IMG/VR virus record: IMGVR_UViG_3300027859_000009
Location: 16,535-80,534 of that record
Origin: a virus
Direction: 5' to 3' (one strand)
Length of the DNA stretch: 64,000 bases
Shown here piece after piece: positions 18,189-59,280 of this stretch; position 1 is the stretch's first letter, and each line of letters starts with the position of its first letter. The notes under the pieces were generated by a model. The model was not told where the DNA came from and did not search any database. It saw nothing but the letters and a program-made list of their open reading frames with translations. The translations under genes were made by a program, and so were the position numbers.

Positions 18189-18220
18189 TTATTTATATAT
18201 TTGTTAAAAATAATTGCCCT

Positions 18221-18262
18221 CAGATTTTTTTATGTCGTTTATAATGATTATATTTATACTAT
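18221..18262 (+). promoter_or_regulatory. class I (putative early) promoter repeat
   Basis: CAGATTTTTTTATGTCGTTTAT-N6-TATATTTATACT. Confidence 0.8.
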
Positions 18263-18283
18263 ATTAATCAAAACGAATAAATT

Positions 18284-18850: not shown

Positions 18851-18873
18851 AAAAAGTGAAAAATAAATCACTC

Positions 18874-18915
18874 CAGATTTTTTTATGTCGTTTATTTTTC
18901 TTATATTTATACTGT
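18874..18915 (+). promoter_or_regulatory. class I promoter repeat
   Basis: Same 42-bp motif. Confidence 0.8.
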
Positions 18916-18936
18916 AACAAATTAATAATAACAACA

Positions 18937-37916: not shown

Positions 37917-37940
37917 AACTTTTTTAAAAAAAAGTCACTC

Positions 37941-37982
37941 CAGATTTTTTTATGTCGTTTATTATTGTTATATTTATACTAT
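37941..37982 (+). promoter_or_regulatory. class I promoter repeat
   Basis: Same 42-bp motif. Confidence 0.8.
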
Positions 37983-38000
37983 AATTAATTAATCAAAACA

Positions 38001-38286: not shown

Positions 38287-38499
38287 ATGTCAAACTCAAA
38301 GAAAAAATCATTTCCAGTATTTACAATAATATTTCTAATATTTTTAACTTTAAAGCTTGCTGAAATTGGACAAGTAGCAGCTTGGTCATGGTGGTGGGTA
38401 ACCGCACCTTTATGGCTACCTCTTATAGTAGGATTATTCGTAATAGGATTAACAATCACAGTAGGTGTAATTATAGCCTACATAAATAGTAAATTATAA
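38287..38499 (+). CDS. small membrane protein
   Basis: FLTLKL....WSWWWVTAPLW motif common in phage membrane proteins. Confidence 0.7.
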   Translation: MSNSKKKSFPVFTIIFLIFLTLKLAEIGQVAAWSWWWVTAPLWLPLIVGLFVIGLTITVGVIIAYINSKL

Positions 38500-38519
38500 A
38501 CCCTTAAAAACCAAAAATT

Positions 38520-39196: not shown

Positions 39197-39391
39197 ATGA
39201 AAAATATTTTAGAATACAAATTAAGTAGAATGGTACAACTGGTCGCTTTATTTAGTCTTCCAATAATTATATACGGCGAATGGATCGAACCTTACAGCCT
39301 TGAAAACAACATTTGGATAGGAATTAATGGAGCAGTATGGTTACACTTTTTAGACCGAGCACGAAATGGTCTACCATCTAAAAAAGTTTAA
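39197..39391 (+). CDS. small membrane protein
   Basis: Two hydrophobic segments. Confidence 0.55.
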   Translation: MKNILEYKLSRMVQLVALFSLPIIIYGEWIEPYSLENNIWIGINGAVWLHFLDRARNGLPSKKV

Positions 39392-39404
39392 AAATAAATC
39401 ACTC

Positions 39405-39445
39405 CAGATTTTTTTATGTCGTTTATTTTTATTATATTTAACTAT
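39405..39445 (+). promoter_or_regulatory. class I promoter repeat upstream of ligase
   Basis: Same motif. Confidence 0.8.
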
Positions 39446-39471
39446 AATTAATTAATCAAAACAATAACAAT

Positions 39472-40776
39472 ATGCTAGATAGACTACAAGAATTCGTAGA
39501 GAGGAGTAACTCAACAAACTCAAACACTGATAAATTAGATGTCTTAAGAGACTACTCGACAGATCAGGAGGTACTAGGAGCTCTTAGGTATACTTATTCA
39601 CCATTTAAACAATATCATGTTACTTCAAAAAATCTTAAAAAGAGAAGTGACCTGGTTAGTCCAATCGGAAACCAATACGGTAGTATATTTACCCTATTAG
39701 ATACGTTAAATGATAGAATAATCACAGGACATGATGCTATTGCAGCCGTAAACAGATTTATTCTCGAGAACAGACAATATGAAGAACTCATCTATAATAT
39801 TATAGATCGAAATCTTAAGACCCGTTCTACAGCTTCAATGATTAATAAAGTTGTACCCGGTCTCATACCAGGATTTGATGTTGCATTAGCCGCAACCTAT
39901 GATGAGAAAACAAAAAAGAAAGTCGATCTTGATACTGATGATTGGTACCTTTCTAGAAAATTGGACGGAGTCAGATGTTTAGCATTCTTCGACAACTTCG
40001 GAACTGTTACTTTTAAAAGTAGAAGTGGCAAACCATTTGATACACTTGGAAAAGTTGCTAAAGAACTTGAAGAACTGAAACTTTACAACGTCGTGATGGA
40101 TGGAGAGATTTGCATTGTTGATGAAAATGGTGATGAAGATTTTCAATCAATCATCAAAGAAATCAAAAGAAAAGACCACACTATCAAAAACCCATTATTT
40201 CAAATTTTTGATATGATATCGTTAGAAGACTTTGAGAATAAGACTTCAAGGGAAAAATTAAGTGAAAGACTTGATAATCTTGAAATGGTCTTCCATCACT
40301 TCGACCCTAAATACACCAAAGTACTTGAACAAGACCTCTTAACCAGTTGGGATATGTTTGAGTCTAAGATGGACCTAGCCGTTCAGAGTGGTTGGGAAGG
40401 TCTAATGCTACGAAAAGACGAGAAGTACAAAGGTAAAAGAAGTACAGATATCCTGAAGGTAAAGAAATTCTATGATGAAGAATATATCGTCGTAGACGTA
40501 GAGAACTCCCCCAATCGTGTAATTGTTGATGGAGTCGAAGTAGAAGAGATGATGCTAAAGAACGTCATCATAGAACACAAAGGCAATAGAGTACAGGTTG
40601 GAAGTGGTTTTACAATTGATGAAAGAAGAAACTATTTTGAAAACCCTAATAAAATATTAGGAAAGACCATAACAGTGCAGTACTTTGAAGAGACTACAAA
40701 TCAAAATGGCACCCATTCATTGAGGTTCCCAGTGATTAAAGCAGTCTACCAAAACGGAAGAGTTGATTATGTATAA
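39472..40776 (+). CDS. lig: ATP-dependent DNA ligase
   Basis: KLDGVR (motif I), SRSGK, DGEI, FD, EGLMLR, LKVK, VGSGF, LRFP. Confidence 0.95.
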   Translation: MLDRLQEFVERSNSTNSNTDKLDVLRDYSTDQEVLGALRYTYSPFKQYHVTSKNLKKRSDLVSPIGNQYGSIFTLLDTLNDRIITGHDAIAAVNRFILENRQYEELIYNIIDRNLKTRSTASMINKVVPGLIPGFDVALAATYDEKTKKKVDLDTDDWYLSRKLDGVRCLAFFDNFGTVTFKSRSGKPFDTLGKVAKELEELKLYNVVMDGEICIVDENGDEDFQSIIKEIKRKDHTIKNPLFQIFDMISLEDFENKTSREKLSERLDNLEMVFHHFDPKYTKVLEQDLLTSWDMFESKMDLAVQSGWEGLMLRKDEKYKGKRSTDILKVKKFYDEEYIVVDVENSPNRVIVDGVEVEEMMLKNVIIEHKGNRVQVGSGFTIDERRNYFENPNKILGKTITVQYFEETTNQNGTHSLRFPVIKAVYQNGRVDYV

Positions 40777-40788
40777 ACCAAAACTGAG

Positions 40789-40956
40789 ATGAGTAAAGAA
40801 GAAAGATTTGAGTTATGGGTAAATAAATTCAGAAATGAATTAACAGAAGGACAAATAGAAGTTCTACAAGATAGTTTATCTAATTTCGAATGGCCAGATG
40901 AATATAAAGAATTGATACAAGATAGAATAGAAGAACTTAAACCAAAACAAAGATGA
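40789..40956 (+). CDS. micro-gene cassette 1 (55 aa)
   Basis: Hand-translated MSKEERFELW...IEELKPKQR. Confidence 0.65.
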   Translation: MSKEERFELWVNKFRNELTEGQIEVLQDSLSNFEWPDEYKELIQDRIEELKPKQR

Positions 40957-41132
40957 GTCCAAATAAAGATGAAAAGAAATACTGGAATAGAATTTATGGT
41001 TTTTTAGGTAATAGTATTTATGAAATCTATGATACTGAAACGGCAGAAAAGAGAAAACTAAAAGGACAGAAAGTTTTTAAAGAGTTATTAGAACAGAGAT
41101 TAAACCGAAAAAAAGATGAAAGTAATAATTAA
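40953..41132 (+). CDS. micro-gene cassette 2 (59 aa)
   Basis: MSPNKDEKKYW...RLNRKKDESNN. Confidence 0.65.
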   Translation: MSPNKDEKKYWNRIYGFLGNSIYEIYDTETAEKRKLKGQKVFKELLEQRLNRKKDESNN

Positions 41133-41292
41133 ATACAATCCAGAATATAAGACTTCAGTAAAAGTACATGAAGTTAAAGAAGAAGAAGATGCTTGGGATC
41201 TAATAGATGAAGCCAAGCAAAGTTTTGGTCAAGGAATTATATTGACTGACCAGGAGTTTGCGCAATTAATAAACCAAAACAAAGATGAGTAA
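41116..41292 (+). CDS. micro-gene cassette 3 (58 aa)
   Basis: MKVIIKYNPE...QLINQNKDE. Confidence 0.65.
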   Translation: MKVIIKYNPEYKTSVKVHEVKEEEDAWDLIDEAKQSFGQGIILTDQEFAQLINQNKDE

Positions 41293-41389
41293 AATTTGGA
41301 AATACATTTTTAAAAAGAGATATAATTTTTTAGATGTAGTCATGGTTGCTATTATTAGTCAAATCATATATGAATACATTATAAAGTAA
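41285..41389 (+). CDS. micro-gene cassette 4 (34 aa, one TM)
   Basis: MSKIWKYIFKKRYNFLDVVMVAIISQIIYEYIIK. Confidence 0.55.
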   Translation: MSKIWKYIFKKRYNFLDVVMVAIISQIIYEYIIK

Positions 41390-41401
41390 ACCAAATTAAA
41401 G

Positions 41402-41941
41402 ATGATTTGTAAAAAATGTAACGAAATTATTCCACAGGCTAGAGTAGATTTAGGTTACTCTGTTTGTGTTGAATGCTCAGAAGTAGAAAAGTATGGATGT
41501 GTTGATGTTGTACAGCATAAGACTGGAAATACAATCGAAGTACTTTCTAGAAAAGATGCAGAACAGGCAAACAAATTAACTCAAAGGACTGGGTTTGGAA
41601 CTCTAAGAAGTTTAAGATCTGGCACCACTAAAAAAGAAAAACATGTTGGTGGTCAATGTTGTTCAAATGCTTTTGTAGGAAACGAAAAAAGTTTTGAAGA
41701 AGTTGGAAAAGACTGTATGTTATGGGTAGAACTTGAAGATTGGAATAAAGTAACTTATACTCTTCAAAAAGCTCTAGATAAAAGAGAAATTTCAAAAAGT
41801 CAATGGCATCAACTAACCCGAATATTTAAAGAGTTCATGCCGAAAGAAGAAAACAAAATACAAAAAACGATTATAAAATCAGTAGATGAAGAAATCAACC
41901 ATGTATTTAAAAATTGGCGAAATTCAAAAATTTATAAATAA
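41402..41941 (+). CDS. protein with DksA/TraR-type C4 zinc finger
   Basis: CKKCNEIIPQAR.......CVEC. Confidence 0.65.
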   Translation: MICKKCNEIIPQARVDLGYSVCVECSEVEKYGCVDVVQHKTGNTIEVLSRKDAEQANKLTQRTGFGTLRSLRSGTTKKEKHVGGQCCSNAFVGNEKSFEEVGKDCMLWVELEDWNKVTYTLQKALDKREISKSQWHQLTRIFKEFMPKEENKIQKTIIKSVDEEINHVFKNWRNSKIYK

Positions 41942-41960
41942 AAGTTAAAATAAATCACTC

Positions 41961-42003
41961 CAGATTTTTTTATGTCGTTTATTATGATTATATTTATACT
42001 ATA
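41961..42003 (+). promoter_or_regulatory. class I promoter repeat upstream of the NAD+ operon
   Basis: Same motif. Confidence 0.8.
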
Positions 42004-42016
42004 ACAAATTAAAGAT

Positions 42017-42880
42017 ATGCTACAACTTAACTTATATCCAAATCAGAAAAAAGGAATCAACTACGAAATTTATAAATTTCCAGACGGTCAACAATCTATT
42101 AAAATAGATGAATTTGCATTTCAACATGATCGATTTGAGGTAGAAATTGTAAGTCCTTTTACTTCATTCCTAGATTTAGAATTAATAATCTGTGCAAATC
42201 AAGCTCTTAAAGAAATGGGAGTTCAAAAAGTCAGTTTATATACACCATATTTCTTAGGTGGTAGAAGTGATAGAAAATTCGAAGAAGGAACTTCAAACTA
42301 TTTAAAAACAGTAGTTTGCCCAATTATTAACAGTCAAAACTTTCATAGAGTTACTGTTTTAGACCCACATTCAGATGTAATAGAAGCGTGTCTTAATAAC
42401 TTTAAAGGAATCGATACTGTTGATTTCGCTGAACAAGTTTTAAAAGATGTAAAAGCTCAATATTATCCGGTACAAGATTTAGAATATCCTATCGTGCTTG
42501 TATCTCCAGATGCAGGTGCTCTCAAAAAAGTATTTAAAATTCAGAAAAGTACAGGTATTAAAAACCTAGTTATTGGTTCTAAGAATAGAGATGTCAAAGG
42601 ACAAATAACACATACTTCTATTTCAGGACTGAAAGACATAAATATCTCAAACGCAACCTATATTATCTTCGATGATATATGCGATGGAGGTAGAACTTTC
42701 CTTGAACTTGCTAAAGTTATAAAAAAGGAAAAAGAAAATGCTAGAATAGTTTTAGCAGTAACACATGGTCTTTTTACTAAAGGTCTTCCGATCGAACATG
42801 TTGACCACGTATACACCACAGACTCTATTGTTCGTGAATTTGAATCAAAGAGTCTTACTATTATAAATTGTAACAAATAA
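42017..42880 (+). CDS. PRPP-synthetase-like enzyme (probable Adps, ADPR-PP synthase)
   Basis: FPDGQ, PYF.G.RSDR, DPHS, VSPDAGA, DDICDGGRTF, THG. Confidence 0.85.
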   Translation: MLQLNLYPNQKKGINYEIYKFPDGQQSIKIDEFAFQHDRFEVEIVSPFTSFLDLELIICANQALKEMGVQKVSLYTPYFLGGRSDRKFEEGTSNYLKTVVCPIINSQNFHRVTVLDPHSDVIEACLNNFKGIDTVDFAEQVLKDVKAQYYPVQDLEYPIVLVSPDAGALKKVFKIQKSTGIKNLVIGSKNRDVKGQITHTSISGLKDINISNATYIIFDDICDGGRTFLELAKVIKKEKENARIVLAVTHGLFTKGLPIEHVDHVYTTDSIVREFESKSLTIINCNK

Positions 42881-42891
42881 AAATCAATAAT

Positions 42892-44409
42892 ATGAAAATG
42901 AACAGCTTATTTTTAACAGATGGTTATAAAACTGGACACCATCAACAATATCCAAAAGGAACAAACACAGTTTATTCTAACTGGACACCAAGAGGAAACA
43001 AGTATGCACCGAGAGGTTGTGATAAAGTCGTTTCATTTGGACAACAAATGGTAATTCAATGGTTAGTAGACCATTTTAATGATAACTTCTTTAGTCAACC
43101 TAAAGAAAAAGTTTGCGGTCAAATGAAAGCTGAATTGTCAATGTACTTAAATACAGACTATGATGTAACTCATTTCGAAGAACTTCACGATTTAGGTTAT
43201 CTTCCTATTGAAGTTAAATCTTTAGAAGAAGGAATCGAAGTTCCTTTAAGAGTTCCAATGTTGACAGTACAAAATACTGGAAACTTTGGATGGTTAACTA
43301 ACTTTTTAGAGACTATTTTATCTAATATGTTATGGCAACCAATGACTTCAGCGACAATCGCTTTGTTATACAAGCGAATTTTAACTGAAGGTGCTTTAAA
43401 AACAGACAAAGATGCAATTGGTTTTGTAGACTTCCAGGGACATGATTTTTCTATGAGAGGAATGGGAGGATTTATGAGTACTATCTTAAGTGGACTAGGA
43501 CATGCTGCCGCATTTAGTGGAAGTGATTCTTTGCCAGTTATTGCAGCAGCCAGAAACTACTACAACGAATCTGGTTTCGTTGTCGGTTCAGTAAATGCCA
43601 CGGAGCATTCAGTAATGTGTGCTGGAACTAAAGGAGATGAATTAGGAACCTTTAGAAGATTAATGGATACCTATCCAACAGGAATATTAAGTATTGTATC
43701 TGATACCTGGGACTTATGGACAGTAGTCACTGATTATTTACCAGCATTAAAAGACGAAATTATGAGTCGAGATGGTAAAATAGTTATTCGACCTGACAGC
43801 GGAGACCCGGTAGATATTCTTTGTGGATATAACTCTCTTACGACAGACGAGTTCAAGGGCAAGGCAATCACTGTGGGTGATGCACATCCTGCTAATAAAG
43901 GTTTAATTGAACTTTTATGGGAAACCTTTGGAGGAACTACAAATTCACAGGGCTACAAAGTCTTAGACCAACATATTGGAGCAATTTATGGAGATAGTAT
44001 TACTCCAGATCGAGCAAGACAAATTATTGAAAGACTTGCTAGAAAAGGATTCGCTTCTACAAACGTAGTTCTAGGTATTGGAAGTTACACTTATCAATAT
44101 AACACTAGAGATACATTTGGTTTCGCAATGAAAGCAACCTATGTTGAAGTTGAAGGAAAAGGAAGAGAAATCTTTAAAGACCCTATCACAGATGATGGAA
44201 CCAAAAAATCTGCAAAAGGTTTATTACATGTAAGTAAGAACCCAGAAACTGGAGAACTAGAACTAAGAGATATGGTTTCTAGAAAAACAGAAGCAGAAGG
44301 AGAATTAAAAACTATTTTCAAAGACGGTAAATTCTACAATAGAACTACCTTAACTGAAGTTAGAAATAAAATCTCTAACTTGATTACAGACCCTAAATTG
44401 GTTAAATAA
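42892..44409 (+). CDS. nicotinamide phosphoribosyltransferase-like enzyme (NadV / probable Namat)
   Basis: TDGYK.GH, HDFSMRG, ATEHSVM, SIVSDTWD, IRPDSGDP, IYGDSIT, KDPITD.G.KKSAKG. Confidence 0.9.
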   Translation: MKMNSLFLTDGYKTGHHQQYPKGTNTVYSNWTPRGNKYAPRGCDKVVSFGQQMVIQWLVDHFNDNFFSQPKEKVCGQMKAELSMYLNTDYDVTHFEELHDLGYLPIEVKSLEEGIEVPLRVPMLTVQNTGNFGWLTNFLETILSNMLWQPMTSATIALLYKRILTEGALKTDKDAIGFVDFQGHDFSMRGMGGFMSTILSGLGHAAAFSGSDSLPVIAAARNYYNESGFVVGSVNATEHSVMCAGTKGDELGTFRRLMDTYPTGILSIVSDTWDLWTVVTDYLPALKDEIMSRDGKIVIRPDSGDPVDILCGYNSLTTDEFKGKAITVGDAHPANKGLIELLWETFGGTTNSQGYKVLDQHIGAIYGDSITPDRARQIIERLARKGFASTNVVLGIGSYTYQYNTRDTFGFAMKATYVEVEGKGREIFKDPITDDGTKKSAKGLLHVSKNPETGELELRDMVSRKTEAEGELKTIFKDGKFYNRTTLTEVRNKISNLITDPKLVK

Positions 44410-47464: not shown

Positions 47465-47485
47465 AAATTTTAAAAATAAATGACA

Positions 47486-47528
47486 CAGGATTTTTTTATG
47501 TCGTTTATTTTTCTTATATTTATACTAT
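47486..47528 (+). promoter_or_regulatory. class I promoter repeat upstream of ECF sigma
   Basis: GGATTTTTTTATGTCGTTTATTTTTCTTATATTTATACT. Confidence 0.8.
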
Positions 47529-47553
47529 ATTAAAAACACAAAAACGTACATAT

Positions 47554-54934: not shown

Positions 54935-54994
54935 AGAAACTTTCTGAAATTCTTTGATATATAAATTAATAAACCCTAAAAACATTTATTAAAG

Positions 54995-57490: not shown

Positions 57491-57530
57491 TGTAAAACTT
57501 TTTTTAATCTGGTGCGAAAATAATTCACAC

Positions 57531-57573
57531 CAGATTTTTTTATGTCGTTTATTTTTCTTATATTTATACTATA
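57531..57573 (+). promoter_or_regulatory. class I promoter repeat with upstream inverted repeat
   Basis: Motif preceded by AATCTGGTG...CACCAGATT. Confidence 0.8.
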
Positions 57574-57596
57574 ATTAATTAATCAAAACAATAGAA

Positions 57597-58205: not shown

Positions 58206-58273
58206 AATCTGGAGTGAAAATAAATCACTCCAGATTTTTTTATATCGTTTATTATGATTATATTTATACTGTA
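58206..58273 (+). promoter_or_regulatory. class I promoter repeat with perfect 12-bp inverted repeat
   Basis: AATCTGGAGTGA-AAATAAA-TCACTCCAGATT then TTTTTATATCG...TATATTTATACT. Confidence 0.8.
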
Positions 58274-58307
58274 GTTAATTAATAATAACCTTTAAAAAAT
58301 ATAAAAT

Positions 58308-58817: not shown

Positions 58818-58854
58818 TAACATTGTTCATAACTTGTTCATAACTTTATGGCAC

Positions 58855-58897
58855 CAGATTTTTATTTATCGCATATAATAGTTATATTTATACTGTA
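58855..58897 (+). promoter_or_regulatory. degenerate class I promoter repeat
   Basis: CAGATTTTTATTTATCG...TATATTTATACTGTAGTTAATT. Confidence 0.7.
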
Positions 58898-58934
58898 GTT
58901 AATTAATAATAATAACCTTTAAAACACGTAAAAA

Positions 58935-59252
58935 ATGGAAAATTCAACAAATTACTTCGATCAAAAACAACCAACTTTAATCGCTCAACTAGGGCCAGAA
59001 AAAGAGGTGGTATATACTAACAAGTCTTTTACTGAGATAGAGGCTATCATAGAACCTTTTAGAATAGCCAATCCTGAAATGGGTTGTGGAATCAAAACTC
59101 CAAAAGGAAATAGCTGGGTCGGATTAGTTACTTGGGCTGATCAGATGGAAATGTTCTGGGAGTACCCAACATATACTCCAGAAGGAGACAGACTTGCGGC
59201 GCTTCGTAAAGCAGAGCAGGATGCTAAAGGAATATTAGCATCTTGGGGATAA
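58935..59252 (+). CDS. hypothetical early protein
   Basis: Follows class I promoter. Confidence 0.6.
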   Translation: MENSTNYFDQKQPTLIAQLGPEKEVVYTNKSFTEIEAIIEPFRIANPEMGCGIKTPKGNSWVGLVTWADQMEMFWEYPTYTPEGDRLAALRKAEQDAKGILASWG

Positions 59253-59280
59253 TCAATTAATAACCCTTAAAAACAAAAAA

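Follow-up and report, generated by a model that had tools for sequence, protein, structure and literature searches.

Short conserved elements that set accessory genes apart have been described in T4-type phages and in mycobacteriophages. The promoter-early stem-loops (PeSLs) of T4-type phages combine a strong sigma-70-like promoter with a terminator hairpin at the boundary of a transcription unit, and PeSL mini-circles have been demonstrated experimentally (Arbiol et al. 2010, PMC2839356; Comeau et al. 2014, PMC4122927). The SAS and ESAS repeats of Cluster K mycobacteriophages have a function that is not known; SAS is 13 bp long, GC-rich and confined to one phage cluster, with an AGGAG Shine-Dalgarno (SD) core 3-7 bp from the start codon (Pope et al. 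2011, PMC3203893). Here we describe an element, the junction, that recurs between very small genes in a 64,000-nucleotide stretch of viral DNA (hereafter, the window) from the 80,534-bp IMG/VR contig IMGVR_UViG_3300027859_000009 (G000). Our analysis indicates that this 24-25-nt sequence is probably a stop/restart adaptor that works independently of an SD and doubles as the homology for exchange of gene cassettes. It is best read as a putative translational counterpart of the T4 PeSLs and the mycobacteriophage SAS.

Like a PeSL, the junction is a short, conserved and putatively regulatory element that flanks ORFans in variable regions, and the insertions, deletions and replacements among close relatives have their joints within it. 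Homologous recombination between copies has been proposed for PeSLs, and in both systems the expression signals would travel with the cassette. However, the junction has neither promoter nor terminator hairpin, and no -35/-10 pair could be read in its 24-mer. It appears to lie inside an operon, where it would act at the level of translation, its 24 nt include a start codon and stops in three frames, and it is identical across much more divergent phages. Like SAS, the junction is a short, asymmetric repeat found in one orientation at the start codons of some non-structural genes from different families; it is essentially absent from host genomes, prefers ATG, and sometimes holds the stop codon of the upstream gene. 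Unlike SAS, it lacks an SD and holds a constant register in which the ATG and the two codons after it are included; it also carries three-frame stops and recombination joints, and occurs in deeply separated lineages. No paper with the junction sequence was found in the searchable literature, and keyword searches found no description in print.

Five copies of a 19-mer contained in the junction lie on the + strand of the window, starting at 40774, 40938, 41101, 41270 and 41387 (2, 0, 2, 0 and 2 mismatches) and separated by 164, 163, 169 and 117 bp, compared with 0.12 copies expected by chance; none of 100 shuffles reached five. An earlier note on the window had reported this array, and its copy number, sites, spacings and mismatches were all reproduced. 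Two further near-copies lie outside the window, close to the start of the record. The features of the array are as follows (aa, amino acids; ORF, open reading frame).

39472..40776, + strand: ATP-dependent DNA ligase, left flank (Pfam DNA_ligase_A_M, 8e-18; DNA_ligase_OB_2, 1e-10)
40773..40797, + strand: junction 1, spanning -16 to +9 around the ATG at 40789; 2 mismatches
40789..40956, + strand: cassette gene 1 (ORF1), 55 aa, ORFan; ends at the TGA of junction 2
40937..40961, + strand: junction 2; exact 19-mer
40953..41132, + strand: cassette gene 2 (ORF2), 59 aa, ORFan; headed by junction 2
41100..41124, + strand: junction 3; 2 mismatches, the TAA at +6 missing
41116..41292, + strand: cassette gene 3 (ORF3), 58 aa, ORFan; tail NQNKDE encoded by junction 4
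41269..41293, + strand: junction 4; 41270-41293 is the exact 24-nt consensus with all three stops
41285..41389, + strand: cassette gene 4 (ORF4), 34 aa, hydrophobic micro-protein; headed by junction 4
41386..41410, + strand: junction 5; 2 mismatches, heads the conserved right-flank gene
41402..41941, + strand: 179-aa protein with a CxxC...CxxC zinc-finger motif, right flank; headed by junction 5

Every copy of the 19-mer contributes an ATG at the identical offset, and the ORFs headed in this way are 55, 59, 58, 34 and 179 aa long. The genes upstream end in different frames. The ligase and ORF4 stop at the TAA that opens the repeat, which for the ligase is the opening triplet of junction 1; ORF1, with the tail KPKQR, stops at the TGA of an ATGA overlap; ORF3, with the tail NQNKDE, stops at the TAA right past the ATG; and the stop of ORF2 lies 14 nt further on. 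No mutual similarity was found among the four small ORFs. An ORF-by-ORF check agreed with the earlier descriptions of each interval as one unrelated ORF of 34-59 aa begun by the repeat, and of upstream genes ending in three frames with these tails. By our own estimate from base composition, the probability that all four junction-to-junction frames would be open in DNA of 31% GC is ~5e-8. The four small ORFs are real genes; ORF1, ORF3 and ORF4 have homologues elsewhere. Cassette gene 3 has 14 homologue clusters at 76-93% identity from marine and other metagenomes (ENA, JGI, Tara and NCBI), most of which share the junction-encoded tail. A weaker homologue was also found for cassette gene 4, and cassette gene 2 has a single weak one (in carrier record G005; 41% over 32 aa). 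The 179-aa zinc-finger protein matched no Pfam or PHROG family.

We pooled 294 distinct junction copies, taken from the record and from contigs that were retrieved with the motif. The conserved unit spans 24-25 nt, from -16/-15 to +9 relative to the ATG, with abrupt edges on both sides. The repeat proposed in the earlier note therefore stands, but its length of 19 bp does not, since the unit extends through the codons AGT AAA. Positions +5 to +9 (AGT AAA) are conserved in 60-77% of copies although they lie outside the search pattern, and most products start with MSK. Among 186 sites matched by the first 15 nt, with no ATG required, 114 continue directly with ATG and 36 with AAGATG. Five large carrier records (G001, of 380 kb, and G002, G003, G004 and G005) hold 9-22 copies each, all on one strand and clustered, whereas the reversed control gave 0; those fetched have 30-31% GC.

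The junction contains stops in three frames: TAA at -15, TGA at +2 and TAA at +6. The complete set is found in 157 of 293 junctions, and on other contigs the longest upstream ORF ends at -15, +2 and +6 in 62, 62 and 79 of 270 junctions, respectively. Proteins that end with the junction-encoded tails are common; the tails recur because the junction is translated in the two frames that run into it.

There is no G from -15 to -2 and no SD in the junction, which is in line with the SD-less start suggested earlier. The core consists almost only of A and C, a composition from which no self-pairing is predicted. Adenine occupies -3, -6, -12 and -13. In Flavobacterium johnsoniae, initiation without SD pairing is favoured by low structure and by A at these same four positions (Baez et al. 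2019, PMC6847099), and the junction resembles this Kozak-like context of Bacteroidia in its adenines, in the lack of an SD and in its low pairing potential near the start. The cellular signal, however, is a loose preference, whereas the 24-mer of the junction is exact and its C's do not vary; it serves only a few per cent of the phage's genes and is nearly absent from cellular genomes. C is present at -5, -10 and -11 in 91-95% of junctions, compared with 4-16% of ordinary genes. Termination-reinitiation signals, such as the calicivirus motif TURBS and bacterial translational coupling at ATGA, also place a conserved motif just upstream of the stop/start overlap of consecutive ORFs on one mRNA. 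TURBS acts through pairing with 18S rRNA, whereas the junction core has no unusual complementarity to a Flavobacteriaceae 16S rRNA. Tethering of this kind was rejected: the best duplex with a proxy Flavobacteriaceae 16S rRNA has -7.9 kcal/mol, which 34% of shuffles equal. A class-II promoter reading was also set aside: it calls for an AAAC box and, 17 nt further on, a TATAA box, an arrangement that the junction, as read from its sequence, does not fit.

The junction is a phage feature and not a genome-wide start consensus. In G000 and the four carrier records that were fully fetched, it heads 3-5% of genes, and these genes are short (median 57-85 aa, compared with 146-164 aa for other genes). 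Ordinary gene starts in the carriers are A-rich and lack an SD site. An exact search for the 19-mer across 596 Gb of bacterial and archaeal genomes returned 25 scattered stretches, mostly in metagenome-assembled genomes, compared with at least 119 stretches in IMG/VR. The 80 IMG/VR matches listed came from 77 different contigs of 1-380 kb, many of them with multiple copies; the reversed 19-mer gave six single matches in the same database. A 30-mer comprising the junction and the first five codons was found in 24 stretches. The search proposed in the earlier note thus found the 19-mer to be abundant in phage contigs from metagenomes and rare in cellular genomes.

Comparison of the window with its close relatives revealed that the genes between junctions turn over. 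The ligase has orthologues of 91% aa identity in contigs L001, L002 and L008 and of 88% in L003, L004 and L005, and the zinc-finger protein is 86% identical in L001, L002 and L008; as a query, the zinc-finger gene found only three contigs, all already known. Between ligase and zinc-finger gene, L001, L002 and L008 hold four different ORFs of 28, 28, 143 and 50 aa, and L003, L004 and L005 have ~15 junction-led ORFs past the ligase. Nucleotide identity between the window and L001 is 94% as far as 40795, which lies inside junction 1, and 89% again from exactly 41402, the ATG of junction 5, with nothing in common between these points. Homology of L003 to the window also stops at junction 1, and that of L050 starts there; window and L050 are then alike through the ATGAGT of junction 2 and unrelated beyond. 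Whole cassettes have thus been replaced among close relatives with breakpoints inside the repeat, as expected of the recombination point that the earlier note had proposed.

Individual cassettes are also found next to other genes. Cassette 1 is present in the 380-kb contig G001 from junction to junction (86.6% nucleotide and 91% aa identity) with both neighbours different, and cassette 4 matches L087:809-951 at 74.5% nucleotide identity, likewise from junction to junction. Across scorable cassette families, the family of the downstream neighbour differs in 11 of 19 and that of the upstream neighbour in 15 of 21.

Exchange reaches beyond close relatives. The major capsid proteins of the carriers are 25-27% (G001, G002 and G004) or 37-47% (G003 and G005) identical to that of the window. 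Only 28 of the 460 ORFs of G001 have a detectable homologue in the window's record, with a median identity of 43%; cassette 1 ranks first among them (91%). When G001 is compared with G000, G003 and G004, the genes of highest similarity are array cassettes (82-93% aa identity), whereas all shared genes have medians of 43-50%. The cassettes have therefore passed from lineage to lineage long after divergence of the core genomes. The element is not private to the source phage; deeply diverged jumbo phages have it too. We also observed arrays at the extreme ends of contigs (G001:375020-380234, G002:62-835 and G003:110-5540, in the records behind L044, L046 and L073), which suggests that assemblies break at arrays through variation within the population.

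The fetched loci contain 360 junction-started ORFs with a median length of 60 aa. The 325 complete ORFs of at least 20 aa fall into 206 similarity clusters, of which 149 are singletons. The cargo is under purifying selection, with a median dN/dS of 0.21 across 28 gapless homologous cassette pairs. Of 100 family representatives, ~10 match Pfam and ~90% are ORFans; the Pfam-matched cargo comprises thymidylate synthase, UvdE, C5 methylase, PD-(D/E)XK nuclease, spore photoproduct lyase, metallophosphatase and several DUFs, and one cassette family matches an HNH endonuclease PHROG (4e-5). The cargo may include early host-takeover or anti-defence genes, as the earlier note suggested, but part of it codes for ordinary enzymes, among them thymidylate synthase, C5 methylase and UvdE. 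At one and the same locus, relatives encode different hydrophobic micro-proteins of 28-34 aa (L001:7325-7514; window 41285-41389), which look like single-pass membrane peptides.

The array is bounded by two copies of a promoter-like element.

39392..39449, + strand: class-I promoter-like element of ~55 bp, upstream of the ligase; recurs at ~10 sites of the record
41948..42005, + strand: next class-I promoter-like element; precedes PRPP-synthetase-like and NAMPT-like genes

The first element is the probable start of the transcription unit of the array and the second that of the following unit. No terminator-like site was found in 39300-42100, and sigma-70-like sites between the two elements are not enriched (12, compared with 11.8 expected), with none at the junctions. 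Because of the two bounding elements, the lack of a terminator-like site and the lack of a promoter-like excess between them, the ligase, the four small genes and the zinc-finger gene look like one operon. Copies of the ~55-bp element are also located near window positions 18208-18270, 18861-18925, 37928-37990, 47474-47535, 57518-57580, 58218-58280 and 58842-58905, and the element precedes ~10 genes or operons. Its 3' end has a TAnnTTT-like box followed by TATAAT-like bases, resembling the -33/-7 promoter layout of Bacteroidota, and this phage may have in it a counterpart of its own to the T4 PeSLs. The PRPP-synthetase-like and NAMPT-like genes (window 42017-44409), which lie shortly after the array, form an NAD+ salvage pair with its own promoter-like element. 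A second upstream motif of ~15 nt, AATAACC followed by runs of T and A, stands before several other small genes (window 38490-38519, 54965-54994, 58278-58307, 58905-58934 and 59251-59280); its first bases are like the start of the junction.

The record encodes sheath, portal, capsid and terminase proteins and so is a fragment of a large myovirus. CheckV rates its 80.5 kb as 28% complete, so that the source phage is probably a jumbo myovirus of at least 250 kb, of which the window holds only part. By sheath protein, its closest cultured relatives (33-35% identity) are jumbo phages of Tenacibaculum and Flavobacterium, together with the Lak phages of Prevotella. A search of GenBank phage DNA with the locus gave no match, and the only relatives found with the ligase protein are at most 33% identical. 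SD-like sites precede 2-7% of carrier genes, a share equal to that in pT24 and MaF61, two cultured phages of Flavobacteriaceae, and the hosts of the carriers are probably Flavobacteriia or other Bacteroidota.

Together, these observations favour the stop/restart adaptor as the explanation of the junction. It would separate co-transcribed accessory genes, mostly tiny ORFans, in AT-rich, SD-less jumbo myoviruses. On the mRNA, TAA at -15, TGA at +2 and TAA at +6 would terminate the upstream gene in whatever frame it arrives, and the next gene would be supplied with a poorly pairing A/C-only leader and with ATG AGT AAA. The terminating ribosome may restart at the junction, or a new ribosome may load there, since the leader matches the SD-independent initiation context of Bacteroidia; it is from the position and composition of the junction that its activity in translation and coupling is suggested. 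On the DNA, the same 24 nt on either side of each cassette would be a substrate for homologous recombination, which we consider the likely mechanism of exchange. Recombination between two junctions, in one genome or between co-infecting phages, would delete, insert or swap whole genes, and both frame and expression would survive. The cassettes may also be expressed early. Those with perfect junctions would stay exchangeable, which could partly explain conservation beyond the needs of initiation.

Several observations weigh against this explanation. The orthologue of the zinc-finger gene in L001 has no junction, so the junction is not required for the expression of every gene that it heads. The phages pT24, PTm1 and MaF61 and the huge phage LR756500 have zero junction copies, and the motif is thus not general to phages of Bacteroidota. 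Predicted accessibility of the five junctions, at 0.70, exceeds the local mean of 0.54 only modestly, and junction 1 is no more than average. A length of 24 nt is short for homologous recombination. Finally, the three C's and the G at -1 are exactly kept across very divergent phages; an unstructured A-rich leader would not require this much, and such conservation would be equally in keeping with a sequence-specific reader.

A stronger version of the proposal, which we regard as possible though rather unlikely, is that the junction is a dedicated, integrase-free exchange standard: some specific factor, from phage or host, would read the exact 24-mer and so both restart ribosomes and target recombination. 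If so, unrelated jumbo phages that share a host could all take plug-in accessory genes from one pool.

Also rather unlikely is a rival reading in which the junction is an mRNA operator through which a specific reader, either a RegA-like translational repressor or activator of phage or host origin or a RegB-like processing endoribonuclease, switches an accessory regulon on or off as a whole, with shuffling as a by-product. This would account for C and G positions kept far beyond a generic A-rich start context and for an identical sequence in phages whose capsid proteins are 25% identical, and it has a precedent in SAS, suspected to bind a host or phage factor at start codons (PMC3203893). A whole-record BLAST with G001 as reference against G000, G003, G004, G005, pT24 and MaF61, some of these records being incomplete, gave as carrier-only genes an HD_4 hydrolase, ClpP-like proteases, a lysozyme, a peptidase and a small Smr-domain protein; the HD_4 hydrolase and the 73-aa Smr-domain protein, common to carriers and absent from two non-carriers, would suit a reader. 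Yet there is no recognisable RNA-binding regulator among the carrier-only genes, and PF01818 (RegA) and PF10715 (RegB) had no match in G000, a record that is 28% complete and in which the search controls were silent too. A reader would also leave the three-frame stops and their even use unexplained, although it may coexist with the stop/restart adaptor.

The HD_4 (RelA/SpoT-type) phosphohydrolase gene is located at 859-1833 of the record, ~15.7-14.7 kb before the window starts and directly upstream of a second small junction array. Its product is 48-67% identical among carriers with ~25% capsid identity and is absent from the two non-carrier Flavobacteriaceae phages. The 73-aa protein is a stand-alone Smr domain (L184:16462-16680, in G001) with homologues in G003 and G004 and none in the two non-carriers compared. 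Smr domains can cut mRNA on ribosomes, and by analogy this protein is a possible candidate for a junction reader.

It is improbable that a homing-type nuclease specific for the junction cuts at or near it, so that repair from a co-infecting genome copies cassettes and the junction is kept as the target. Such a nuclease would agree with the frequent exchange among divergent phages, with joints that fall at a single short sequence, and with the HNH endonuclease PHROG match (4e-5) in one cassette family; but no nuclease accompanies the arrays consistently, the fixed ATG register and the presence of three stops speak for a role on mRNA, and homing insertion normally destroys its target rather than keeping it on both sides. 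Still less credible is that the junction is nothing special, either an ordinary start context or the remnant of a tandem duplication of one gene start. All gene starts here are A-rich without an SD, and ATGA overlaps are common in this genome; nevertheless, this reading is refuted: the junction stands at only 3-5% of genes, the cassette proteins are mutually unrelated (206 clusters from 325 ORFs), and the motif comes from at least 77 contigs of many samples, at least 20-fold above the reversed control.

The integron-like behaviour suggested in the earlier note holds as an outcome (gain, loss and shuffling) but not as a mechanism. Like integrons and CALIN arrays, these loci hold co-oriented, promoterless small genes of mostly not known function with a common boundary, varying among relatives through fast turnover, and there is a report of integron parts in some phages (PMC9892861); but movement by site-specific recombination, with an integrase encoded elsewhere, is the least likely of all these explanations and close to refuted, as the tyrosine recombinase family PF00589 is absent from all six carrier records (G000 and G001-G005, with G001 rated 100% complete; control positive in 14 of 14 genomes), the A/C-rich, non-palindromic junction has no consistent inverted repeats at the five sites and no attC-like hairpin, its 24 nt are much shorter than an attC site, its boundary is a translation start, and the exchange fits homologous recombination.

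Whether phage ORFans arise and are traded mainly through exchange at conserved linkers, or mostly through illegitimate recombination followed by selection, is an old question. For the linker model, this locus provides a natural example of unusual clarity: one 24-nt sequence would set frame, termination and initiation for any gene between two copies, and it marks the joints both of replacements among close relatives and of transfers across lineages with capsid proteins only 25% identical. Metagenome assemblies are predicted to break at junction arrays. The junction may also serve as a compact, SD-free operon connector in Bacteroidota, where expression tools are scarce. Searching for it would bring up hundreds of small, selected, mobile phage genes that are candidates for host-takeover or counter-defence functions.

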